A stretch of 40,851 nt of DNA from a virus (lineage: Duplodnaviria > Heunggongvirae > Uroviricota > Caudoviricetes). The number at the start of each line of letters is the position of its first letter. Position 1 is the first letter of the stretch. Of this stretch, positions 2,481 through 38,066 are shown piece by piece. The position numbers and the translations under genes are program-made. Below the pieces are notes generated by a model that was not told where the DNA came from, searched no databases, and saw only the letters and a program-made list of their open reading frames with translations. Where the stretch lies: IMG/VR virus record IMGVR_UViG_2671180411_000016; one strand, given 5' to 3'.

Positions 2481-5400
2481 TTAACATTCCCCCATCACGT
2501 CGCATATTTAACAGATTGCCCTGCACCCGCTGATCAACCATCCCCATAAGTGCTTTTATTGCCTGAGGGCCAATCTCTCCATTCTGGCCGTCATTTTGAA
2601 TAGTGATTTGGTATACAGGGGCATAGGTAATATCTCCGCCTCCATTACCACTTTTACTATTAATAGCTCTGACACCAAGAGAACCATCGGAAGTTCGTGT
2701 TAATGGCATAATGGCTTCCGGTCCAGCCTCACCAAAAACACCAGCCCCTTTTGCAAAAGCAAAAAATTGCGGGGAATCATAAATACCGTTCGAATACGTG
2801 CTCAATGACGGAGACTCATAAACACCGCCCTTTGCATTCGGAATAAATTTACTAATAGCACTCCCGATAGTTCCTAAAATCCCCCCAGAAGAACTGTTAC
2901 TAATGCTGTCGAAAATCCCAGTAATTGAAGCCTTTAATGCTATTCGACTAAGATCCGAAATCACGGAAGTAGCGAAAGAACGAAAATTTGCCTTGCCTGT
3001 CGTGACAAAATCACCCAGCGCATCGGTCATCCCATCAAACATCTGAGTCGTGGTTGATTTTATCTGCTCACTGATATCCTTAGTGTCATCCAGCCAGTTA
3101 TTGAATCCCTGGGAGGCACCACTAACCCAGTCTCCTGCCTGAATATCGAGCTGCTCGTTTTTCTGTCTGACAATTTCTTTTTCCCGTTCCAGAGCATCAT
3201 TCAGAGCCTGCATTTTCTCTTGAAAAACATGATCTGACATTCCACGGGATTTATCTGCATAGTCACGTTCAAGTTGCAGACGCTGATTGTTATATCCATG
3301 TTCAATCCGCAGTAATTCCTGCTGGCGTTGCTGATTTTTATCGCCAACCCCATAACCAGCAATCTGAATATCATACCCCTGCTGACGATTATCAATCGAA
3401 GCCTGCAATGAATCACGCCATGCTGTTATTTCGGCGGATTCCTTGATTAGCCTGTTATTTTTTTCAATCGCAACATTTTTCTCCATCAACGTGGTTATTT
3501 CTTCCCGGTGTAAGAGAAGCGATTTCTGATCCTGGGTTAATTTCGATGATGGTCGTGACTCTAGGTCGGCAATCCGCTGACGCCACTTAACCAGTTCCTG
3601 TTCAGAGGAACTTAATTTAACGGTCAACTCAGCTTGTGAACTTAGTAACGCATTCTGTTGATTCAGATGATCAATCATTCGTTGGGCTGCATCATCAGAA
3701 TAACCTTTCGCCTTTGGTTGCTTTGGATCTTTATAACGCTCATTTATTTGAGCGATAAGATTATTATATTCTTCCTTTGAATACTGATTCTTTAGCTTTT
3801 CCAGTTTTGCAAGTTCACTAGCTCTCTGCTGCTCCCGGGTCTGATATTGTTTTGAAAAGGCATCTGCTCTCTGTCTGAGTTCAATTCCTTCCTGTTGTCG
3901 CTTGTTGTAATCGTTTATTGATGAATTTAGTACGTCCTGAGCAATTTTTTCTGCTTGAAGTACGCCCAATTGCTGCTTTAATCGTGCCAGCCTTTTATTT
4001 TGAGCTCCGCCATCTCCAATGCCACCTAACCCGAAAACTCCGGGTCGGGTATTTTTTTCTATTTCATCAATTTGACGGAGAACATCTGAGATTTTTTGAT
4101 CAAGGGAGGCCTCACGGCCAATATCCAGCATGGAATCCCATGCCCATTTTGCGGAGTCTGCGACAGCTTTCCATGCAGTCTCAAGATAACCAAGATTTTC
4201 TTTAATCTGGTTGGTGCGCTGGATCATTGAGGATGAGTATTCTTCTGTCGCAATGCGGGCGGCCTCCTGCTGGTTCCCTTCATCCTGTAGCGCCTTAATC
4301 TGGTTATAAGTCGCAAGTGTCAGAAAATGGTACTGATCATTAAGTTTTGATATGGCACTGACAGGATCCTTTGCAATTTCATTGAAGTCATTAACCAGTT
4401 GTTCGGTTGATATTCCTGTTACTTCGCTCGTTTTTACTATCGCTGTCGTCACTTGCTCCAGCGAACTGCTCGCTACCTTTCCCGAACGCACAAGCTGATT
4501 TAATACTGCCGCCGCAGCACCAGTTGTCGAATCAGCCGCATTCCCGGCACGTTGAGCTATATCGCCCAATTGCCCGCTGGTTGTCCCCAACTGATTTCCG
4601 GTAAGAATAAGAGATTTATTAAATTCGTCCTGCTCCTGAGAGCCTTTATAGTAAGCCAGTCCTAAGACCCCAACGGCTGCTGCGGCCAGGGTAAAAGGAT
4701 TAATTAATCCCAGCACATAAGAACCTACACCTTTGATCGCCGGGCCAATCCCACCGAACATATCTTTTAGCTGGCCGCCCTGCTGCATTAACACCATAAA
4801 TGGCGACTGACCAGTGGACAACCCAACAACAATATCCGTCATTTGTACAGGCAACATGCGCATAGCAAAAGCCGTTTGTTTTGCCGACATTCCGGTTTTG
4901 CTTAATTGTGATTGAGTAACCTCAAGCTCACTCCGCATAGCACGAAGTTTTCCAGAAAGCTCCTCATACATTTCAGGAGAAAGCATCCCCTTAGCTTTTG
5001 CTTCATTGAGCTGTTTCTGTTGTTCTACCAGACGATTAAAAGCAGTTCCGACAGGATCAAGTTGAGCAATCAGACGTTGCAAAGCAACAACCTGTTCATC
5101 ATGCGCTTTTGCTGCTTCTCGCTCTGCCTGAGCCTCTCCGGTAAGCTCTCGCCGTGTTTCCTGTATTTTTCGGCTATAATTCTCAAACTGAGAACCATTT
5201 ATTTTCCCGGATGCAAACGCAGCATTAAGTTCATCATGCTGTTGTTCAAGATTTCTTAGCGCCGCAGCCAGAGGGTCGATCTTGTCCAGCATTCTTTGAA
5301 AGGCCTGAGCCTGCGCTTCCTGCTGGGCGGCAGCAAGTTTTCCGGCCTTCTCGGCTTCTCTCTGCGCTTGCGCAACCCCGCTCAATTCCTCTGTGGTTTC

Positions 5401-12672: not shown

Positions 12673-14067
12673 TGATTTCCATCAGCATTACACTCTGATT
12701 TTTTAATTCATCGATCACTTCCTCTGGACGGGAATCCTGATCGATAAATTTCAACGCCTGCAACACCCGAACCGCATCAATCTGACGTATATCACCGCCC
12801 TGACGCAATGACTGAACAGCCAGCGCGGAGGATGAGTCAAACACCTGGGCAGATACATCCAGTTCAGTGCGCACATCCACATTGCCACCGCAACTCTCTC
12901 CGATCCATTCCGCCATTATCTGGAGAATATTATCGAGGGCATCTTCGAGGGAGTTCGCCATTGTATAAAGCGGCGAGTTTTCCTGCATTCGCTCTTCATT
13001 AGTCTGATCAACAGATTTGGTGGATGTATTTTCAGCACGCAGAAGTTTAGCGCCGGCATGACGCATCTGATTTTCCAGCTTCTCAAGTGATGTTTCGCCA
13101 GATTCTATCGCTGCGCCACTATGTTCAACATATTCGAGGCCATTTTTTGTTCTGTCCTCAAAAATCGTAGCGGTGGATGCACCAACCGTCAGTTCTTCAT
13201 TCCTGTCCAGCCCGTAGGCCACCAGCAATGGAACGCGGGCAACATGAAGAATATTGTCCTGCTCGCTCTGGCTTTGCCAGTGCTTGATATTCAGCAAGCC
13301 AAGATTAAGCAATGGCGGTGTACCACGCATAAATCCTGTTTTCTTCGTGTACAGTGTTACCAGAGGAATATCATCACGGCTGGTATTCCATGACTCATGA
13401 AGCGTCCAGACAGATTNNNNNNNNNNNNNNNNNNNNNNNNNNNNNNNNNNNNNNNNNNNNNNNNNNNNNNNNNNNNNNNNNNNNNNNNNNNNNNNNNNNN
13501 NNNNNNNNNNNNNNNNNNNNNNNNNNNNNNNNNNNNNNNNNNNNNNNNNNNNNNNNNNNNNNNNNNNNNNNNNNNNNNNNNNNNNNNNNNNNNNNNNNNN
13601 NNNNNNNNNNNNNNNNNNNNNNNNNNNNNNNNNNNNNNNNNNNNNNNNNNNNNNNNNNNNNNNNNNATCTCTTTCATATCCGTTCGTGGATAGTCCACCA
13701 GCGCATGTGCCACACCATACTGAAATGCGAGGCTGAAAAATTGCTGCGCCCACACATCCAGTCGGCTCCCCTCCATGTCGATATTTTCTGCATATTCCCT
13801 GATTTTTGCCGGCGTTTCCTCACTCAATACTGTCGGCTCTGCAAATATGCGCCCAATATTTTGCTTGATGCTTTCTTCATACACAGGAAGTAGCGTAGCC
13901 ACAGACAGGCGTTTTTTATAAGCGTCTTCATCTTCGTTAGGCCATTTTGGGAGATAATTTTCCCCCTGCCTGCGCATTTCAAGCGTACCGCCCATCAGTG
14001 CGTCGTTAATATCCCACGCCTCCAGCATATCGTTATAGTCGAGGTTGGGTGTTGATATATCAGCCAT
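12653..14067 (-). CDS. portal protein (interrupted by N-run 13417..13666; frame not continuous as given)
   Basis: Two ORF pieces (13357..14067 N-terminal, 12653..13753 C-terminal) flank the N-run; position between terminase and head morphogenesis gene. Confidence 0.75.
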
Positions 14068-15377: not shown

Positions 15378-16455
15378 CACTCCTTACTCTGGCATCAACC
15401 ACATTAATATTGATCGCCACAGGCTGGGGATGTTCATTATCTTCCACCGTTTCGATCTCTTTGCGCAGCTTCTGGTTTTCCATTCTGCGCCGTTCAATTT
15501 CCAGTTCCCGTAGCCGCTTATCTGCACATAAAGCCCCGCCAGCAGAAAACAAACGCAACAATTCACGNNNNNNNNNNNNNNNNNNNNNNNNNNNNNNNNN
15601 NNNNNNNNNNNNNNNNNNNNNNNNNNNNNNNNNNNNNNNNNNNNNNNNNNNNNNNNNNNNNNNNNNNNNNNNNNNNNNNNNNNNNNNNNNNNNNNNNNNN
15701 NNNNNNNNNNNNNNNNNNNNNNNNNNNNNNNNNNNNNNNNNNNNNNNNNNNNNNNNNNNNNNNNNNNNNNNNNNNNNNNNNNNNNNNNNNNNNNNNNNNN
15801 NNNNNNNNNNNNNNNNNNNNTCTGCTATATCGCGCCACTGGTAGAGATGATTCTCGCCCCAGCAATAACGGCAGTTAACACGGCGAAATTGTGCAAGCTG
15901 ATTGGGGTCGGCCAGGACAATAGCCATCAACTGACTCACTAGTAAATCCAGGTCTGCGGTATAGCGTTTCTGGTACTGATTGCGGAAGTAGCTGATAGCG
16001 CGAAAAACCCTGGCATTTCTAAGCATACGACTGGCGTTGCTGTTAGCTGTCGCACCTTGCCCCTCATAACCGGCTAGTCGGTACGCCTCTGTCGGCTTTT
16101 TACCCTGAGCAACAAGCATCGCAAACTTAGCCTGCTGGTCAGAAATGCCGAATTCATCGGGACAGAACGAAAATTCCTCCGCGTCGCCCTCATTCAGGCC
16201 CGCATCGAATACTGGCTTTTTTTCCTGAGATTTTTCGTTCCGCTTTTGTGCAGTCTGCGCAGATTTTTTCTGCGCACTTTTTTGCGCAGTTTTGCACATT
16301 TCTGTCTGCGCATTTTTCGGAGTTTTTTTGATGTAACGACGGGCTGTTGCGTAATTCAGTCCCCTTGCTTCACACCATGCCACCGGAGATATACCGGAGC
16401 GGGTGTATTCAGCAATATACTCCTGCTGCAACGCCCCCCAGTCCGGTCTGCTCAT
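15352..16455 (-). CDS. terminase small subunit (interrupted by N-run 15568..15820)
   Basis: N-terminal HTH-like region, K/A/Q-rich linker, TEAYRLAGY motif typical of small terminases; overlaps the large terminase start. Confidence 0.8.
   Translation of the reverse strand: MSRPDWGALQQEYIAEYTRSGISPVAWCEARGLNYATARRYIKKTPKNAQTEMCKTAQKSAQKKSAQTAQKRNEKSQEKKPVFDAGLNEGDAEEFSFCPDEFGISDQQAKFAMLVAQGKKPTEAYRLAGYEGQGATANSNASRMLRNARVFRAISYFRNQYQKRYTADLDLLVSQLMAIVLADPNQLAQFRRVNCRYCWGENHLYQWRDIAXXXXXXXXXXXXXXXXXXXXXXXXXXXXXXXXXXXXXXXXXXXXXXXXXXXXXXXXXXXXXXXXXXXXXXXXXXXXXXXXXXXXXRELLRLFSAGGALCADKRLRELEIERRRMENQKLRKEIETVEDNEHPQPVAININVVDARVRSDEDDLSDA
16246..16330. repeat. five copies of TGCGCA (one TGCACA) each followed by a T-run, inside the 5' part of the small-terminase gene
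   Basis: Read directly: TGCGCA at 16256, 16271, 16283, 16307 and TGCACA at 16293, each followed by T4-7. Confidence 0.6.
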
Positions 16456-18496: not shown

Positions 18497-19954
18497 TTAG
18501 GAGCGCCAAAAAAAACCTGAAAACAATATAATAACAGGATAAATTTCAAGGCGACCAAGAATCATAGCTATGCACATTAAATATTTTGCAATGTCATTAA
18601 GCACTCCGAATGACGATGCAGTAGCCCCAAAACCTAATCCCATATTATTAATACATGCAGCCACTGTTGCAAATGATGTAAGAAAATCATATCCCATACC
18701 ATTTAACACCAGTATAAAAAACACCGTGAAGAGAGTATAAAGAAAAAAGAAACTCCATACAGACCTCATTACACGATCTGTAACTATCTTCCCTCCTACA
18801 TTTACACTCAACAACGCTCTGGGATGAGAAAGCTGATTTATCTCGTGTTTGCTTTGTTTGAAAAGTATAAGAAATCGAAGTGACTTAATTCCACCACAGG
18901 TTGAACCTATACATCCCCCAAAGAAACTTGACAACAGCAAAAACACTATCGTGTGCGTGGGCCAGTTTGCATAATCCTGCGTAGCTAAACCATTATCAGT
19001 GAGCATGGAGCTGGCAAGAAAAAACGAATGAATAAAACTTCCATGCAAGTCATACATACCTATATGCCAGACCTGGAAAGAGGTAACAATGATCACCCCT
19101 AAGGCTATTAACAGAAAGAAACGAAGTTCAATATCTCTGATTAAAGGTTTTATCGTTTTTCTGCTAATAACAATATACCAAAGAGTGAAGTTGAAAGCCG
19201 ATAGCAGGGAAAAAGAACCAGCCACCAGCTCAACCAAATAGTTATTAAAATATCCGATACTCTCGCTATGAGTTGAGAAACCACCAAGCGAAACTGTGGA
19301 AATCCCGTGACAAATAGCATCAAACAAAGGCATTCCTGCAAGTCTATAACAGACAATACAAGCAATACCTAATAAAGAATAAGTTATCCACAGTGTCCGT
19401 GACGTATCGGCCAGGCGGGGAGTGAGTTTGTCATCCTTAAATGGCCCCGGCATTTCTGACTGATAAAGCTTTGCACCACCAATACCCAATAATGGCAATA
19501 CTGCAACCGCCAGAACAATAACTCCTAAACCACCTATAAAATTTAACTGTGACCGATAGTACAAATATGCCCGAGGTAATGAACTAACATCATCAATTAC
19601 AGTTGCTCCTGTTGTTGTTATTCCAGAAACCCCTTCAAACAGAGCATCAATGAACGTTAAATTAAGTTCTGAGTCAATCCATAAAGGGAATGCACTAATA
19701 ACAGAAAACAAAATCCAAAACATTACAATTATAATAAACCCATCACGGGTACGTAATTGAATGCCAGATTTCTTAGTTGTATACCACGCTCCGCCACCAA
19801 TGCAAAAAAATATAACGAAAGTTATAAAGAAAACGAACAGGCTTTTTTCTTTATAAAACAATGCTACAACCATTGGTGGCAACATTGAAAGACTATAGAG
19901 CCAAACCAGGAACCCACACATATGAGTAACAACTCTTACATGAGATGTATTCAT
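18497..19954 (-). CDS. trkG: TrkG potassium uptake protein (TrkH family)
   Basis: Polytopic membrane protein; from ATG 19954 (MNTSHVRVV) it is 485 aa, matching remembered TrkG; AT-rich relative to neighbouring phage genes. Confidence 0.9.
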   Translation of the reverse strand: MNTSHVRVVTHMCGFLVWLYSLSMLPPMVVALFYKEKSLFVFFITFVIFFCIGGGAWYTTKKSGIQLRTRDGFIIIVMFWILFSVISAFPLWIDSELNLTFIDALFEGVSGITTTGATVIDDVSSLPRAYLYYRSQLNFIGGLGVIVLAVAVLPLLGIGGAKLYQSEMPGPFKDDKLTPRLADTSRTLWITYSLLGIACIVCYRLAGMPLFDAICHGISTVSLGGFSTHSESIGYFNNYLVELVAGSFSLLSAFNFTLWYIVISRKTIKPLIRDIELRFFLLIALGVIIVTSFQVWHIGMYDLHGSFIHSFFLASSMLTDNGLATQDYANWPTHTIVFLLLSSFFGGCIGSTCGGIKSLRFLILFKQSKHEINQLSHPRALLSVNVGGKIVTDRVMRSVWSFFFLYTLFTVFFILVLNGMGYDFLTSFATVAACINNMGLGFGATASSFGVLNDIAKYLMCIAMILGRLEIYPVIILFSGFFWRS

Positions 19955-20091
19955 ATCTAAATATTCTTTCAATTATAACCACCTTGCTGCAATATTATGA
20001 TTATACTGTATAAAATTTAACTCCTCTTAGATCTTACTTCACTGTTCCTTATGAAACAATCATCAAAATGAATCATATTGTAGTTAAGATT

Positions 20092-20738
20092 TTACTTTAA
20101 ACACTGCTCGGTTATGTATTGCTGAGCACCTTCAAGTTGGGCCTGCATCATTACCAGTCGTTCCCGGAGGGTGAAATAATCCCGTTCAGCGGTGTCTGCC
20201 AGTCGGGGGGAGGCTGCATTATCCACGCCGGAGGCGGTGGTGGCTTCACGCACTGACTGACAGACTGCTTTGATGTGCAACCGACGACGACCAGCGGCAA
20301 CATCATCACGCAGAGCATCATTTTCAGCTTTCGCATCAGCTAACTCCTTCGTGTATTTTGCATCGAGCGCAGCAACATCACGCTGACGCATCTGCATNNN
20401 NNNNNNNNNNNNNNNNNNNNNNNNNNNNNNNNNNNNNNNNNNNNNNNNNNNNNNNNNNNNNNNNNNNNNNNNNNNNNNNNNNNNNNNNNNNNNNNNNNNN
20501 NNNNNNNNNNNNNNNNNNNNNNNNNNNNNNNNNNNNNNNNNNNNNNNNNNNNNNNNNNNNNNNNNNNNNNNNNNNNNNNNNNNNNNNNNNNNNNNNNNNN
20601 NNNNNNNNNNNNNNNNNNNNNNNNNNNNNNNNNNNNNNNNNNNNNNATGGCGTTATCACGGTAATGATTAACAGCCCACGACAGGCAGACGATGATGCAA
20701 ATAACCAGAGCGGAGATAATCGCGGTTACCCTGCTCAT
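20092..20738 (-). CDS. Rz i-spanin (interrupted by N-run 20398..20646; frames on the two sides differ as given)
   Basis: N-terminal TM segment [21 protein letters not shown]; C-terminal piece contains the embedded Rz1 frame; ATG overlaps the endolysin stop (ATGA). Confidence 0.8.
20151..20336 (-). CDS. Rz1 o-spanin lipoprotein, embedded in the Rz frame
   Basis: 61 aa, lipobox VVGC, proline-rich (PPPPP, PPP) C-terminal part. Confidence 0.8.
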   Translation of the reverse strand: MRKLKMMLCVMMLPLVVVGCTSKQSVSQCVKPPPPPAWIMQPPPDWQTPLNGIISPSGNDW

Positions 20739-21232
20739 TGTTGACCCCACAAACAGACTTCACGCTCAATCTCACGACGGGTCATCAGCCCTTTCCATTG
20801 CTTACCGCCAGCATATGTCCAGCGACGTAGCTGATCACATGCGCCTTTGATATCGCCCTGGTTTATTTTGCGAAGAAGCGTCGATGTTCTGAAATTACCA
20901 GCACCCACGTTGTAAACGAACGAGTAAAGAGCGCCGCGCGTTGTTTCCGGTATATCGACTTTGATGTACGGGTTAATTTGTCTGGCGACAGTGGCAAGGT
21001 CTTTATTCAAGAGTGTTTTGCATTCTGCTTTGGTATACGTTTTACCGAGCATGATGTCTTTTCCTGTATGCCCGTGACATACAGTCCATACACCAACAAT
21101 ATCTTTGTATGGTATGTAGCTGACACCTTCCAGACCATCGTTACCACTTGGGCCAGTGATTAACACTGATGCTATAGCAATTGCTCCGCCACCAATAGCA
21201 GCAGCAACGACTTTTCGTAATGATGGAGGCAT
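20735..21232 (-). CDS. SAR endolysin (phage 21 R-type lysozyme)
   Basis: 165 aa; N-terminal Gly/Ala-rich signal-anchor-release segment [18 protein letters not shown]; GAGGTG Shine-Dalgarno. Confidence 0.9.
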
Positions 21233-21447
21233 TATTCACCTCTCGCAGCCTTGCGCTTATCTTCTTTAATCTTGAAATAAAGGTTTGTCAGGTACGTCAG
21301 CAGGCCAAATACCAGACTACCCAGCACACCGATTGCAGCCCACTGTGACGGAGTTACTCTATCGAGCAACTGTAAAAACCAGTAGCCAGCACTGCCTGCG
21401 GAGGTGCCGTAGGCAATGCCTGTTGAAATTTTGTCCATGGATTTCAT
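21232..21447 (-). CDS. pinholin (phage 21 S-type) with dual start MKSMDK
   Basis: From [26 protein letters not shown]... = 71 aa with a second start 3 codons in; GGAGGTG Shine-Dalgarno; stop overlaps the endolysin start. Confidence 0.85.
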
Positions 21448-21544
21448 AGCCTCACCTCCGCACGGAACGGATGGCATAGTTATTATGTGTAGGCTTTCAG
21501 ACACATCAATCAGAGCCTTAATTGATATATATGCTGGAGACGAT

Positions 21545-21573
21545 GCAATATAAAAAGCTCGCCGTAGCGAGCT
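21545..21573 (-). terminator. intrinsic terminator (AGCTCGC-CGTA-GCGAGCT plus T-run) between the lipoprotein genes and the holin
   Basis: Perfect 7 bp inverted repeat at 21556..21573; followed on the minus strand by TTTTTATATT. Confidence 0.55.
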
Positions 21574-21698
21574 AATAAAATGTATTTCTCTGATATTATG
21601 TTTATTTGTATTAGCTCAGACTTGACATCACAGGTTTCGTATATAGAACATCATCAAATCTGTCAGTTTGCTATGAATGAGATATAGTAATTGAAGAG

Positions 21699-22094
21699 CT
21701 AACCTCGCATGTCAAAGCCAGATTTCTGAAAATCTCTGTAGACTTCCGGATTGTTGAAGGCCGGAAATTTGGCTTTATGAGCTGCGGACTTTATCGCTTC
21801 GCAATAGGCTTTATCACCGTTACTGGTAGATATTTTTAACGCCGTGCCATCCTGAGAGAATTCCATATGCAACCTGCATTTTTTCCCTTTCCAGTTATGC
21901 GGCTCATCAAGTTTGGCATTAATTGCAGCTCTGATTCCCCGCGCTTGCGCCCCCCATTCATCCTGATCATCCCAGCGTCCTGAACTGCAACTACCTGTAG
22001 CAGTAGTTTTGTGGCAATCTGAAGGGTGTAAAGGTGTGCATCCCGCAACAAAACCGACCCAAAAAGTCAACATAACGATTTTCTTTAATCCCAC
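21699..22094 (-). CDS. lipoprotein with TolA C-terminal (domain III)-like domain, paralog 1
   Basis: 131 aa, signal peptide plus lipobox VAGC; C-terminal region is paralogous to the second lipoprotein and resembles the remembered C-terminus of E. coli TolA. Confidence 0.65.
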   Translation of the reverse strand: MGLKKIVMLTFWVGFVAGCTPLHPSDCHKTTATGSCSSGRWDDQDEWGAQARGIRAAINAKLDEPHNWKGKKCRLHMEFSQDGTALKISTSNGDKAYCEAIKSAAHKAKFPAFNNPEVYRDFQKSGFDMRG

Positions 22095-22244
22095 TTCTTG
22101 CTCCTCAATCCATTAAAATCTCAGCAATAGTAGTTGTTACGTCCGCCACTGGCTCAGAGCTGACTATCCGCTAAATTTAGCTCAGTGCCGTAGCTGTGTC
22201 AGAACAAACCTAAGCCGAAACCGTTTATTACAAAACAATAAATA

Positions 22245-22673
22245 TCAGGGTTTAAAATCCAGCACCCCATTTTGAAATACTTTATATACTTCCGGCGAAG
22301 GGGGGGCAGGTATATCAGCATTCTTTATCGCATTCATCGCTTCACGACATAAATCGAGGTCTCCACTTTCTCTTTTAACCTCCAGTAGAAGGCCATTCGG
22401 GGCCATATGCATTCTCAGTGTACACTCTTTTCCTGAATACTTACTCGCATCCCCGAACTGTTTTTCGATGGCGCTCTTGATTTGATGGGCATACAGACGG
22501 ATATCCTCACTAACATCAGAAGTACGTTCAGATGAACTCACATACTGTGTCTCTATTGCTTTATCGGAGTAATATGATGTACGGTCATGATAATTTGTCG
22601 ATACAGCATCAGTGCACCCGATAATAATCCCACTAATAATCAACGTAAGAATTGATGCGCTACGAAAACCCAT
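22245..22673 (-). CDS. lipoprotein with TolA C-terminal (domain III)-like domain, paralog 2
   Basis: 142 aa, lipobox IIGC; ...SGKECTLRMHMAPNGLLLEVKRESGDLDLCREAMNAIKNADIPAPPSPEVYKVFQNGVLDFKP resembles the remembered TolA C-terminus (...CTLRIKLAPDGMLLDIKPEGGDPALC...YEVFKNAPLDFKP). Confidence 0.7.
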   Translation of the reverse strand: MGFRSASILTLIISGIIIGCTDAVSTNYHDRTSYYSDKAIETQYVSSSERTSDVSEDIRLYAHQIKSAIEKQFGDASKYSGKECTLRMHMAPNGLLLEVKRESGDLDLCREAMNAIKNADIPAPPSPEVYKVFQNGVLDFKP

Positions 22674-22788
22674 TTTTCCTCACATATGTCATATAGTAAA
22701 GGATTATATATACCGTTGTTTTGGACGCTCAAACAGCGAATCAGATCAAATAAAACGCACATTTGTTAACATTTACACAAAGTCTGCG

Positions 22789-22809
22789 TGGGATATTCTG
22801 AAAGAATAT
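22789..22809. promoter_or_regulatory. perfect palindrome GGATATTCT-GAA-AGAATATCC upstream of the lipoprotein genes
   Basis: 9 bp arms that are exact reverse complements, read directly. Confidence 0.5.
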
Positions 22810-23610
22810 CCATAATGTGGAGAGAATCTATTGAAGTGCATGGTGCCGGGTGCCTCCCGGTGAACAAAATGTTCGTGATACCTGTCGGCGACAGAAAAGG
22901 TTAATGGTATCACCCCACCGCACAGGGGGATTCACCATGCAGGAGTTTTCTTAGCAAACTCACTGCGCGCCCGGCAACTCCCAACCACATAAAATGCGGA
23001 GTTTGTGGCATTTATGCATATAACTCGCAGGAATTATCTTAAAAAACTGATGTCGATCCGGATTAAAAAGAAGCAGGTCATCATCAGATGACTGGAAAAA
23101 AGGAAAACAAAAAATACTCATCATACAGTTTTGATTGCAGGGATGAGCCTGCTATGCACAATATGCAGAATATAAGCAAGATAAAAATATGCAGGCATAT
23201 TATTTCGGATCTTGTTATTAACACAACCTTTTTAATAATCATTTGGCATACAATAAACCAGCCCAAAAAGAACCGCCTAAACAGGCGGTTGGTCAATACA
23301 AAGGATGCTTCGTCTTTATTATAGTAATCTGAGGCGTCGGGTGTCTTGTATCAGACAACATATTGTCCCGCTAAACAGCGAATTACAAACCACCCTGCAA
23401 TGATCTCTCATCTCATTTTATATGAGTTGACGACATCAGGATAACGCATCATCAGCCCCTGCCAAGAAATATCAAAACTCCCGCCAGCAATGTGTTATCA
23501 CAATATTGTAAAAAAAACACAGCACCGAAACTATAACTGGTCTCTGTTATAATTTGGAGCAGAAAGACCAGTTGCCCAACTAGCAGCATTCTCCCCTGCT
23601 TTCCTGACGT

Positions 23611-23717: not shown

Positions 23718-24260
23718 TCAAGCCATTTTCTCAGCAAATGATTCACGCATGGGAATATATAGGGCATACTCAGCAACAGCTAACCAATTAGCAATCCGTT
23801 TTTCGCATGTGCTAAAACACCACTCTGGGTGTGCATCATTTAGCAATTCAGCCATTTTGCGCTTAGTCATCCCCCGCCCTTCATAGCGTTGCCGGAGAAT
23901 GCAAATCAATCCTGGATGCTCTGCCAGCACCTCACTTATGACTCGATCAATACATAACGCCTCTGCATCAGTACAATGCGCCAGCCAGCTCTTTTGCTTG
24001 CCGTTGATCATCTCTCGCAAAAACGCTTCCAGCTCAGCTTTCTCTATTCCCGCTTTTTTCATTCTGCGCAGGGCTTCATTAATGGCTGTTTTCGTCAGTT
24101 TTTTGGATGCCAACAACTGATTGAACATATTCCCTGACCTGCCACCGCCAATATACGACCAGCGCCCCCACATACGTAGTTTTCCCTGAATCCAGACACT
24201 TTCCAGCGTGGTGAGGCGAAGGTGTTCTCCGCTTTTTCCTGTATTCGTTGGGTAAATCAT
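23718..24260 (-). CDS. late gene antiterminator Q
   Basis: 180 aa ORF immediately upstream of the late terminator and lysis genes; general character of lambdoid Q-family proteins. Confidence 0.75.
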   Translation of the reverse strand: MIYPTNTGKSGEHLRLTTLESVWIQGKLRMWGRWSYIGGGRSGNMFNQLLASKKLTKTAINEALRRMKKAGIEKAELEAFLREMINGKQKSWLAHCTDAEALCIDRVISEVLAEHPGLICILRQRYEGRGMTKRKMAELLNDAHPEWCFSTCEKRIANWLAVAEYALYIPMRESFAEKMA

Positions 24261-35456: not shown

Positions 35457-38066
35457 ATGAGCACAAAACCACTCTTCCTGTTACGGAAAGCGAAAAAATC
35501 ATCCGGTGAACCTGACGTCGTCCTGTGGGCAAGCAACGATTTTGAATCGACCTGTGCCACTCTGGACTACCTGATCGTTAAGTCAGGTAAAAAACTGAGC
35601 AGCTATTTTAAAGCTGTTGCCACGAATTTTCCTGTCGTTAATGACCTGCCCGCTGAAGGTGAGATCGATTTTACCTGGAGTGAACGCTATCAACTCAGCA
35701 AAGACTCCATGACATGGGAACTAAAACCGGGAGCAGCACCAGACAACGCTCACTATCAAGGCAATACCAACGTCAACGGCGAAGACATGACTGAGATTGA
35801 GGAGAATATGCTACTCCCAATTTCTGGCCAGGAACTGCCCATTCGTTGGCTTGCTCAACACGGCAGCGAAAAACCGGTAACGCACGTTTCACGCGACGGA
35901 CTCCAGGCATTACACATTGCTCGGGCTGAAGAACTACCGGCTGTTACTGCCCTGGCTGTTTCCCACAAAACCAGCCTGCTCGACCCGCTGGAAATTCGCG
36001 AACTCCACAAACTGGTTCGTGACACTGACAAAGTTTTCCCTAATCCTGGTAATTCAAACCTGGGACTGATAACTGCTTTTTTCGAAGCATACCTGAACGC
36101 TGACTACACCGATCGAGGACTGCTGACAAAAGAGTGGATGAAGGGTAATCGTGTTTCACACATCACTCGCACGGCTTCCGGTGCTAATGCTGGCGGCGGA
36201 AACCTCACCGATCGCGGCGAAGGTTTCGTACACGATCTGACGTCACTGGCGCGGGACGTAGCCACTGGCGTACTGGCCCGTTCAATGGATCTGGACATCT
36301 ATAACCTTCATCCGGCACACGCTAAACGCATTGAGGAAATTATCGCTGAAAATAAACCGCCCTTTTCTGTTTTCCGCGACAAATTCATCACCATGCCTGG
36401 CGGGCTGGATTATTCCCGCGCCATCGTGGTTGCGTCCGTAAAAGAAGCACCAATTGGGATCGAGGTCATCCCCGCGCACGTCACTGAATATCTGAACAAA
36501 GTACTGACTGAAACCGATCATGCCAACCCTGATCCGGAAATCGTGGATATTGCCTGCGGTCGCTCCTCTGCCCCGATGCCGCAGCGAGTAACAGAAGAAG
36601 GAAAACAGGATGATGAAGAAAAACCGCAACCATCTGGAACAACGGCAGTTGAACAGGGAGAGGCTGAAACAATGGAACCGGACGCAACTGAACATCATCA
36701 GGACACGCAGCCGCTGGATGCTCAGTCACAGGTAAATTCTGTTGATGCGAAATATCAGGAACTGCGGGCAGAACTCCATGAAGCCCGGAAAAACATTCCA
36801 TCAAAAAATCCTGTCGATGCCGATAAATTGCTTGCTGCATCACGTGGTGAATTTGTTGACGGAATTAGCGACCCGAACGANNNNNNNNNNNNNNNNNNNN
36901 NNNNNNNNNNNNNNNNNNNNNNNNNNNNNNNNNNNNNNNNNNNNNNNNNNNNNNNNNNNNNNNNNNNNNNNNNNNNNNNNNNNNNNNNNNNNNNNNNNNN
37001 NNNNNNNNNNNNNNNNNNNNNNNNNNNNNNNNNNNNNNNNNNNNNNNNNNNNNNNNNNNNNNNNNNNNNNNNNNNNNNNNNNNNNNNNNNNNNNNNNNNN
37101 NNNNNNNNNNNNNNNNNNNNNNNNNNNNNNGATCCGGAGGAAATGGAAGGCGCTGAACATCCGCACAATGAGAATGCTGGCAGCGATCCGCATCGCGATT
37201 GCAGTGATGAAACTGGCGAAGTCGCAGATCCCGTAATCGTAGAAGACATAGAGCCAGGTATTTATTACGGAATTTCGAATGAGAATTACCACGCGGGTCC
37301 CGGTGTCAGTAAGTCTCAGCTCGATGACATTGCTGATACTCCGGCACTGTATTTGTGGCGTAAAAATGCCCCCGTGGACACCACAAAGACAAAAACGCTC
37401 GATTTAGGAACCGCTTTCCACTGCCGGGTACTTGAGCCGGAAGAATTCAGTAACCGCTTTATCGTAGCACCTGAATTTAACCGCCGGACAAACTCCGGAA
37501 AAGAAGAAGAGAAAGCGTTTCTGAGGGAATGCGCAAGCACAGGAAAAACGGTTATCACTGCCGAAGAAGGCCGGAAAATTGAACTCATGTATCAGAGCGT
37601 TATGGCTTTGCCGCTGGGGCAATGGCTTGTTGAAAGCGCCGGACACGCTGAATCATCAATTTACTGGGAAGATCCTGAAACAGCAATTTTGTGTCGGTGC
37701 CGTCCGGACAAAATTATCCCTGAATTTCACTGGATCATGGACGTGAAAACTACGGCGGATATTCAACGATTCAAAACCGCTTATTACGACTACCGCTATC
37801 ACGTTCAGGATGCATTCTACAGTGACGGTTATGAAGCACAGTTTGGAGTGCAGCCAACTTTCGTTTTTCTGGTTGCCAGCACAACTATTGAATGCGGACG
37901 TTATCCGGTTGAAATTTTCATGATGGGCGAAGAAGCAAAACTGGCAGGTCAGCTGGAATATCACCGCAATCTGCGAACCCTGGCTGACTGCCTCAATACC
38001 GATGAATGGCCAGCTATTAAGACGTTATCACTGCCCCGCTGGGCTAAGGAATATGCAAATGACTAA
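35457..38066 (+). CDS. recE: exodeoxyribonuclease VIII RecE (interrupted by N-run 36891..37130)
   Basis: 869 aa ORF; N-terminal [39 protein letters not shown] matches remembered RecE; stop overlaps the recT start. Confidence 0.95.

Follow-up and report, generated by a model that had tools for sequence, protein, structure and literature searches.

The 40,851-nucleotide stretch of DNA analysed here, IMG/VR virus record IMGVR_UViG_2671180411_000016 (the window), corresponds to a prophage of the Rac type (intR...recET...sieB...trkG...tail genes) whose late region carries two adjacent genes, here called LP1 and LP2. Each encodes a small prelipoprotein that ends in a copy of TolA's C-terminal domain, domain III (TolAIII), and that is devoid of TolA domains I and II. 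Entry of colicins and filamentous phages via TolA is a textbook system, and the tip of TolA is the handle that both of them grab; the natural means of protection that are known are immunity proteins, receptor loss, and tol mutations that cripple the envelope. We tentatively favor the reading that LP1 and LP2 may be unenergized, lipid-anchored TolAIII decoys that make their carrier tolerant to Tol-dependent colicins and filamentous phages, a proposal drawn from sequence comparison that we consider quite possible while stopping short of calling it probable. The idea fits because the binding strands of TolAIII are conserved in LP1, domains I and II are absent, and the carriers of such genes are mobile elements.

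An initial annotation of this DNA, made from its letters alone, had noticed that the C-terminal regions of the two proteins resemble TolA domain III and had suggested pairwise alignment and structure comparison as a check. Those comparisons were run, and profile, sequence alignment and predicted structure all agree with the resemblance, which is significant for both proteins. The Pfam profile of the TolA C-terminal domain, PF06519, scores 82.6 bits with LP1 (E=2.4e-23) and 54.6 bits with LP2 (E=1.3e-14), both above its gathering score of 25 bits. Among PDB sequences, LP1 aligns without a gap to residues 334-421 of E. coli TolA (E=5e-28, ~58% identity), and its C-terminus ...PEVYKVFQNGVLDFKP does indeed align with ...QAVYEVFKNAPLDFKP, the TolA ending that the initial annotation had given. 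LP2 matches TolAIII at ~31% identity (E=5e-9). AlphaFold2 models have a predicted local distance difference test score (pLDDT) of ~90 for LP1 residues 52-142 and LP2 residues 39-131, with disordered N-terminal tethers, and the modeled domains share the order of helices and strands H-H-E-E-H-H-E, in keeping with solved TolAIII, whose alpha/beta fold has three helices and a three-stranded sheet. The best Foldseek hit for LP1 is E. coli TolAIII in 2x9a_B (root-mean-square deviation 0.6 Å over 88 residues, template-modeling score 0.96) and for LP2 it is E. coli TolAIII in 3qdp (1.1 Å over 86 residues, 0.92); for both, TolA and TonB C-terminal domains that are less closely related make up the lower ranks.

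Neither protein has a bona fide TolA domain I, the transmembrane segment, or the helical domain II: NCBIfam models match them only over positions 293-386 of 387 (~95 positions). Scores with the TolA equivalog model NF007065 are 107.8 for LP1 and 53.7 for LP2, both below the cut-off of 213, and LP1 passes TIGR02794 (75.6 vs a cut-off of 59.45) through its C-terminal part alone. The genes also lie outside the tolQRA-tolB-pal operon. RefSeq/PGAP calls LP1 a 'tolA' pseudogene that is incomplete and missing its N-terminus, and gives it no protein record (L002 20846-21106). This label is an annotation artifact, which arises because a full-length TolA model (TIGR02794) matches a domain-only protein, and with no protein record LP1 will be missed by protein-based surveys. 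In PHROG, LP1 and LP2 are both full-length members of phrog_5772, a family of unknown function (E=1.6e-62 and 6.7e-65).

Both open reading frames (ORFs) are on the minus strand, and their outer ends coincide exactly with the interval named in the initial annotation (21699-22673); they read as it had described them, each beginning with a signal peptide and a lipobox (IIGC and VAGC). The N-terminus of LP1 is MGFRSASILTLIISGIIIGC followed by TDAV, with lipobox I-I-G-C20 and Thr at +2, and that of LP2 is MGLKKIVMLTFWVGFVAGC followed by TPLH, with lipobox V-A-G-C19 and again Thr at +2. The two signal peptides follow the Lpp-type pattern, in which a positively charged n-region is succeeded by a hydrophobic h-region and then by the lipobox [LVI][ASTVI][GAS]C, and by the +2 rule (Thr, no Asp) the mature proteins are predicted to be sorted to the outer membrane. 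In LP1 a disordered linker (residues ~21-52) leads into TolA domain III (~53-142) with its conserved disulfide pair C84/C109; in LP2 a conserved, Cys-bearing linker (C27, C36) leads into a diverged domain III (~44-131) whose Cys pair is C73/C98. Across 25 aligned homologues, neither the lipobox Cys nor the TolAIII disulfide pair varies. The GTG start of LP2 is an ATG at the equivalent codon of the aligned plasmid homologues, and we prefer the 131-residue form of the protein because the shorter RefSeq start (M8) deletes the charged n-region. The LP2 tether is of interest in itself: residues 19-39 (21978..22040, minus strand) hold the motif C-x-PLHPS-x-CHKTTATGSCSSGRWDDQDEWG, with two extra cysteines, which is near-invariant across genera and receives a low-confidence model from AlphaFold. 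These residues may close into a disulfide loop that has its own function.

The surfaces with which TolAIII meets its ligands have been mapped in E. coli. Strand beta3 (A415-K420) is where colicin N, g3p-N1 and the N-terminus of TolB bind in common, each by beta-strand addition, and the TolA substitutions D418P or K420P abolish binding of the three and give a full tol phenotype (PMC4339652). Colicin A binds the opposite edge strand, 375-380, and makes a cation-pi contact with K368 (PMC3365938). At beta3, LP1 reads G-V-L-D-F-K-P where TolA reads A-P-L-D-F-K-P, with L-D-F-K-P identical, and in the g3p-contacting helix alpha2 (334-349) 11 of the 16 residues are the same. The colicin A strand is LLDIKP in TolA and LLEVKR in LP1, and K368 is His in LP1. 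A solved complex of TolAIII with g3p is that of phage IF1 (2x9a). IF1 infects through I-type pili, the pilus type made by IncK2/Z (MPF_I) plasmids.

Interference with these contacts from within the periplasm has been described before. Levengood-Freyermuth et al. are said to have found, in 1993, that periplasmic TolAIII gives colicin tolerance. Work that cites Levengood-Freyermuth 1993 and Wan & Baneyx 1998 (PMC6195910) describes isolated periplasmic TolAIII as acting in trans and as a means of making E. coli leaky, and periplasmic g3p-N1 sequesters TolA and leads to resistance to colicin A and phage (PMC10424213).

If LP1 and LP2 are decoys, we would picture their action as follows. After Sec export, lipidation at Cys20 (LP1) or Cys19 (LP2) and Lol sorting, with Thr at +2, they would come to lie on the inner face of the outer membrane, each domain held on a flexible tether of 25-30 residues. 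There they would sit where colicin translocation domains emerge via porins or TolC, where pilus retraction delivers the g3p-N1 of filamentous phages, and where TolB-Pal is located. They could then capture such ligands by beta-strand augmentation, ahead of TolA in the inner membrane. Because they are without domains I and II, they would bind TolA ligands and yet be unable to couple to the TolQR proton-motive motor, and the invader would be stuck in a dead-end complex, with tolerance to group A colicins, klebicins and Ff/If1-type phages as the outcome. LP1 would be the close mimic of E. coli TolAIII and LP2 a diverged, widely mobile version, perhaps with another ligand range. Made in large amounts from a Q-dependent late transcript, they could also tie up the TolB N-terminus through this binding, to the detriment of Tol-Pal.

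The two genes had been taken for a duplicated pair, and here the initial annotation does not hold up: the identity between LP1 and LP2 is 29%, there are other prophages with LP1 and no LP2, and plasmids and chromosomes carry LP2 by itself. This degree of identity, together with separate phylogenetic and contextual distributions, led us to reject a recent tandem duplication, and for the same reasons we regard LP1 and LP2 as distant paralogues set side by side. The LP1 family is narrow, with 46 database clusters that all come from E. coli or Shigella. Lambdoid backgrounds of at least three kinds carry LP1 without LP2, with a Q gene of the PF03589 type or DUF1133 on one side and the holin gene on the other. 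The LP2 family is broad, with 370 clusters at 78-89% identity that extend to Citrobacter, Enterobacter, Serratia, Klebsiella and Raoultella. Of 5426 complete E. coli genomes, 888 carry LP1, 1269 (23%) carry LP2 and ~780 carry the identical pair; in the phage collection the pair is found in one record only, mEp460_ev081 (LR597641), which makes the case from free phages a thin one.

Outside prophages, LP2 travels alone. Single-gene homologues, 84-88% identical, occupy non-prophage chromosomal sites in Serratia and Enterobacter; the Enterobacter site has a glutathione peroxidase gene on one side and a RidA gene on the other. In Serratia marcescens (L006/L007 5001-7736) an 84% identical homologue stands alone between nrdDG and a GmrSD_N + HEPN pair, a setting that is defense-island-like. 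LP2 homologues are also present on 607 PLSDB plasmids, of which 259 are conjugative, pO157 being among the 607 with a copy that is 87-88% identical. On IncK2/Z (MPF_I) conjugative plasmids the homologue is a backbone gene placed directly after the relaxase genes nikA/nikB and opposite trbABC. The pO157 copy retains the 3' end of nikB upstream and is therefore derived from an IncK2/Z-type plasmid; the transferred unit is approximately the ORF plus about 60 nt.

Selection has kept these sequences. Between LP2 and its plasmid, Serratia and Enterobacter copies, the ratio of nonsynonymous to synonymous substitution rates (dN/dS) is 0.07-0.11 at dS 0.5-1.1. For LP1 it is 0.10-0.25 in the TolAIII domain, with the linker relaxed at 0.5-0.8. 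Judged by these ratios, both are functional genes under strong purifying selection, LP1 in its TolAIII domain. Because LP2 homologues exist as lone non-prophage chromosomal genes, and on plasmids in such numbers, whatever they do must operate in uninduced cells.

A wider family of such proteins is found on plasmids. When 1.84 billion cluster representatives were searched exhaustively by HMMER with LP2 as the query, 130 clusters matched, and the ten clusters with organism names that were looked up are all from Enterobacterales. Among TolAIII-only cluster representatives of 100-170 residues, a lipoprotein signal peptide is present in most, and Asp at +2 in none. Distant versions, 33-39% identical to LP1, are carried by 1300 plasmids in all. 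On the 10,060-bp ColE1-type plasmid p1_020030 of Klebsiella pneumoniae (L003 4908-5641), genes for a TolA-C lipoprotein (lipobox LTAC, C-terminus FKNAPLDFRP) and for a TonB_C protein with a signal peptide overlap by 4 nt, and the two adjoin an operon for a colicin-like tRNase (klebicin), its immunity and lysis. By sequence, this pair would mimic both import hubs, TolA and TonB. On an IncFIB/FII Klebsiella plasmid, a gene for a thioredoxin-fold periplasmic protein is followed by the TolA-C lipoprotein gene. Thiol-disulfide oxidoreductase genes beside plasmid TolA-C lipoproteins include one of thioredoxin fold (L005 4229-5258, K. pneumoniae pCuAs) and one of the DsbC family (L022 10468-11592); the adjacent oxidoreductase may aid folding of the disulfide-bearing domain, or its presence may be a coincidence.

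The carriers of these genes, namely I-pilus-type plasmids, bacteriocin plasmids, the Serratia defense-island neighbor and prophages, are elements exposed to Tol-dependent attack, and this fits the decoy reading. We further speculate, and with more reserve than for LP1 and LP2 themselves, that the two belong to a large and so far unrecognized class of immunity factors borne by mobile elements, in which decoys of the TolA tip, and in some cases of the TonB tip, would be tethered to the outer membrane or periplasmic. Going by the matches, prophages, bacteriocin plasmids, and plasmids of the I-complex and F type would carry such a class throughout the Enterobacterales. If it is real, it would make its carriers broadly tolerant of pilus-dependent filamentous phages and of whole groups of colicin-like bacteriocins.

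Several points weigh against LP1 and LP2 being decoys. In LP2 the ligand sites that have been mapped are diverged (K368 is Glu, alpha2 retains 4 of 16 residues, and beta3 reads S-G-F-D-M-R-G), and LP2, from its sequence, may bind no E. coli TolA ligands at all. A TolAIII tethered to the outer membrane that binds the TolB N-terminus should harm Tol-Pal, at a cost to the lysogen. The promoter-like site upstream of LP1 is a consensus match only and is not kept in all LP1 loci: it persists with a weaker -10 in L019, the locus of a 91% identical LP1 variant, and is missing from the loci of 66% variants. A TolA-annotated gene of CP-933O in EDL933 rises 32-fold after ciprofloxacin (PMC11125564), a case tied to LP1 and LP2 by annotation only, and this induction and the position 3' of a Q-like gene fit late lytic expression no less than they fit a function in the lysogen. 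In the full-text literature, LP1/LP2-type proteins receive descriptive mentions only and we found no functional study. PADLOC-DB v2 defense models gave no match at E<=1; a known anti-phage defense system was set aside on this ground, and the result is uninformative for or against a decoy.

Late expression is central to the main rival explanation, in which LP1 and LP2 sabotage Tol-Pal: made mainly from the Q-antiterminated late transcript, they would bind up the TolB N-terminus at the outer membrane and switch off Tol-Pal, and the looser outer membrane or increased vesiculation that follows would aid lysis and virion release. Wherever the genes were seen in a prophage, they have a Q-type gene on one side and the holin gene on the other, and the TolB-binding core of beta3 in LP1 is that of TolA itself. 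Overexpressed periplasmic TolAIII yields leaky cells (PMC6195910), and the ciprofloxacin response of the EDL933 prophage gene (PMC11125564), linked by its annotation only, points the same way. However, the cassette already has the Rz/Rz1 spanins for the outer-membrane step, and plasmids and non-prophage chromosomal sites, where there is no lysis, carry LP2 homologues that are conserved just as well (dN/dS ~0.1). The Q-S interval is moreover a classic site for lysogenic-conversion cargo, and the hairpin after LP2, perhaps with a promoter of the pair's own, suggests an autonomous unit. We consider sabotage an unlikely explanation of these genes. It is also possible for decoy and sabotage to coexist, and the effect may depend on dose.

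Somewhat less likely again is that the proteins block another envelope protein. Binding by beta-strand augmentation is a general property of the TolA/TonB C-terminal fold, which could clamp the 'box' peptide of an outer-membrane receptor or conjugation component. The outcome would be superinfection exclusion at the receptor, of the kind that Cor and Llp bring about through FhuA, or else entry exclusion, in place of a decoy for Tol ligands. This might apply to LP2 especially, which is diverged at the TolA ligand sites and yet has a C-terminal strand and a Cys-bearing linker that are almost invariant across genera, and which lies beside relaxase and trb transfer genes on I-complex plasmids. LP1 and plasmid homologues also have weak TonB_2/TonB_C profile matches. 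But LP1, at 58% identity to the host TolAIII and with the ligand strands kept, points to TolA ligands, and no candidate target was found. A search of PHROG revealed no similarity to the Cor/Llp families, and the other weak matches there (5374, 37591, 5801) are all of unknown function.

We think it improbable that LP1 and LP2 are Tol-Pal auxiliaries that benefit the host, keeping TolB/Pal in place at the outer membrane or acting as a buffer between TolA and TolB, and so making the envelope more robust under stress. The stable single-copy chromosomal homologues of Enterobacter and Serratia would suit such a role, as would the NCBI name 'cell envelope integrity', which is carried over from the domain and is not evidence. 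Energy coupling is impossible without domains I and II, however, isolated TolAIII is reported to destabilize the envelope (PMC6195910), and the distribution is patchy and mobile-element-borne, not core. That the genes are non-functional remnants of captured tolA 3' ends, as the PGAP entry for LP1 would have it, is highly improbable, since both ORFs are intact with a start, a Shine-Dalgarno sequence and a lipoprotein signal peptide, the lipobox Cys and the disulfide pair do not vary in 25 sequences, dN/dS is well under 1 with dS up to 1.1, and the genes recur in 888 and 1269 of 5426 complete genomes; architecture and dN/dS rule out a pseudogene or fragment.

As for the locus, the minus-strand gene order is DUF1367, YbcO, DUF1133, a gap of ~1 kb that is AT-rich and poor in ORFs, LP1, LP2, essD, rrrD, Rz/Rz1 and trkG (Table 1). 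The 1.5 kb around the pair (21400-22900) is 100% identical to chromosomal loci of many E. coli strains, and the GC content of the LP1/LP2 unit is 0.42 vs 0.46 for the window. The DUF1133 protein matches Phage_antitermQ weakly and at the border of significance (26.1 bits, cut-off 26) and is a probable Q-type late antiterminator by sequence. With this Q-like gene on one side and an S21-type holin, lysozyme and Rz on the other, the placement given in the initial annotation, between Q and the lysis cassette, is correct, and the view of the LP pair as cargo in this interval is supported. The potassium transporter gene trkG (18497..19972, minus strand), directly after Rz/Rz1, is a further cargo gene and a hallmark of Rac; the present prophage keeps late and structural genes that have been lost from the Rac of K-12. 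Five masked runs of N, ~250 bases each, interrupt the window (13417-13666, 15568-15820, 20398-20646, 30032-30263 and 36881-37130), and one of them falls within the Rz/Rz1 spanin genes by the lysis cassette, whose ORFs are not fully readable.

Stx-phage-like cargo was also considered for the Q-S gap, in the form of tRNA genes or a toxin, and rejected: no tRNA gene was found in the window, and the sole Rfam match is an STnc100-like RNA element immediately 5' of the LP1 module (gathering score 47). In the related prophage at L019, three STnc100-like copies flank LP1 (3704-3877, 4599-4803 and 4854-5061), with tRNA genes upstream. Possibly the element is a marker of module borders or of points of recombination in the Q-S interval, or else a prophage small RNA. 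Upstream of the LP genes, a candidate late promoter and a hairpin with a T-run (23347..23271) are a possible pR'/tR' pair, by analogy with lambdoid late regions.

The initial annotation had also given the pair a terminator of its own. A hairpin with a T-run (21573..21556) is indeed present ~125 nt past the LP2 stop and ahead of the holin gene, but it is a consensus match only, from a scan that returned 4 sites vs 2.6 expected by chance. The promoter scan is similar, with 11 sites vs 7.3 expected from shuffled sequence. An LP unit with its own promoter and terminator, that is a moron, is plausible, with consensus sites whose numbers are near the shuffled expectation.

Table 1. Features of the LP1/LP2 locus, in window positions, and coordinates of plasmid homologues of LP2 in their own loci
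Feature	Position	Strand	Basis and remarks
LP1, 142-aa prelipoprotein	22245..22673	-	ORF; ATG start, GAGGA 5 nt upstream
LP2, 131-aa prelipoprotein	21699..22094	-	ORF; GTG start, GAGGAG upstream
Sigma-70 promoter-like site, TTGAGC-18-TATAAT	22703..22732	-	Consensus scan, 10/12 matches; ~30 nt 5' of LP1 start
Intrinsic-terminator-like hairpin and T-run	21548..21573	-	7-bp stem with 5 GC pairs; AGCTCGCTACGGCGAGCT + TTTTTATATT
Candidate late promoter, AAGACA-18-TATAAT	23347..23318	-	Consensus scan only
Terminator-like hairpin and T-run after candidate late promoter	23290..23271	-	Consensus scan only
STnc100-like RNA element	22784..22970	-	Rfam, 86.6 bits, E=3.5e-18
DUF1133 gene, upstream boundary	23718..24260	-	Pfam DUF1133, E=2.5e-107
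essD, S21-type holin	21232..21447	-	Pfam Phage_holin_2_1, E=2e-35; RefSeq annotation of identical locus
rrrD, lysozyme	20735..21232	-	Pfam Phage_lysozyme, E=2e-45; RefSeq annotation of identical locus
Downstream boundary (holin and lysozyme)	20735..21447	-	Followed by Rz/Rz1 and trkG
LP2 homologue, IncK2/Z plasmids	L022 6958-7389; L024 3965-4396; L025 3965-4396
LP2 homologue, pO157	L004 4815-5246		After psiB/psiA/hok

A mobile, naturally selected decoy of this kind would be a new route to group-wide tolerance of bacteriocins and Ff/If phages, and would help explain why wild E. coli are so frequently insensitive to multiple colicins. It would bear on colicin and klebicin therapeutics, on phage display and on M13-based tools in wild strains, and would hand the Tol-Pal field natural dominant-negative probes. 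Pfam and NCBI have flagged the domain already, and the proteins are in PHROG 5772; this family and the NCBI class 'cell envelope integrity TolA C-terminal domain-containing protein' are descriptive bins that include LP1 and LP2 and assign no function. What appears to be unreported is their lipoprotein nature, the mobile-element-borne family with its TonB-tip partners, and the possibility that they are decoys of an import hub.

Among known systems, the closest relative is E. coli TolAIII itself (1S62, 3QDP, 1TOL, 2X9A, 3QDR), with which LP1 and LP2 share fold and disulfide at the identities given above. Unlike TolA, they have in place of domains I and II a lipoprotein signal peptide joined to a short disordered tether, the predicted anchor is in the outer rather than the inner membrane, and there would be no coupling to the proton-motive force. 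Engineered periplasmic TolAIII (RBP-signal-TolAIII, Wan & Baneyx 1998, as described in PMC6195910) likewise places an isolated TolAIII in the periplasm with an effect on the envelope in trans, but that protein is artificial, soluble and overexpressed, whereas LP1 and LP2 are natural, predicted to be lipid-anchored, and encoded by mobile-element genes under selection. Cor (phi80/N15/HK022), Llp (T5) and TraT (F) are also small outer-membrane lipoproteins of mobile elements, oriented to the periplasm or the surface, and they guard the carrier from phage or DNA. None of them is related in sequence to LP1 and LP2. Cor and Llp inactivate the receptor FhuA, whereas LP1 and LP2 would imitate a periplasmic import hub. 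Periplasmic g3p-N1 interferes with the same interaction between TolA and its ligands, and it too brings resistance to colicin A and phage (PMC10424213). It does so from the other side: g3p-N1 sequesters TolA as a mimic of its ligands, whereas LP1 and LP2 would sequester the ligands as mimics of TolA.

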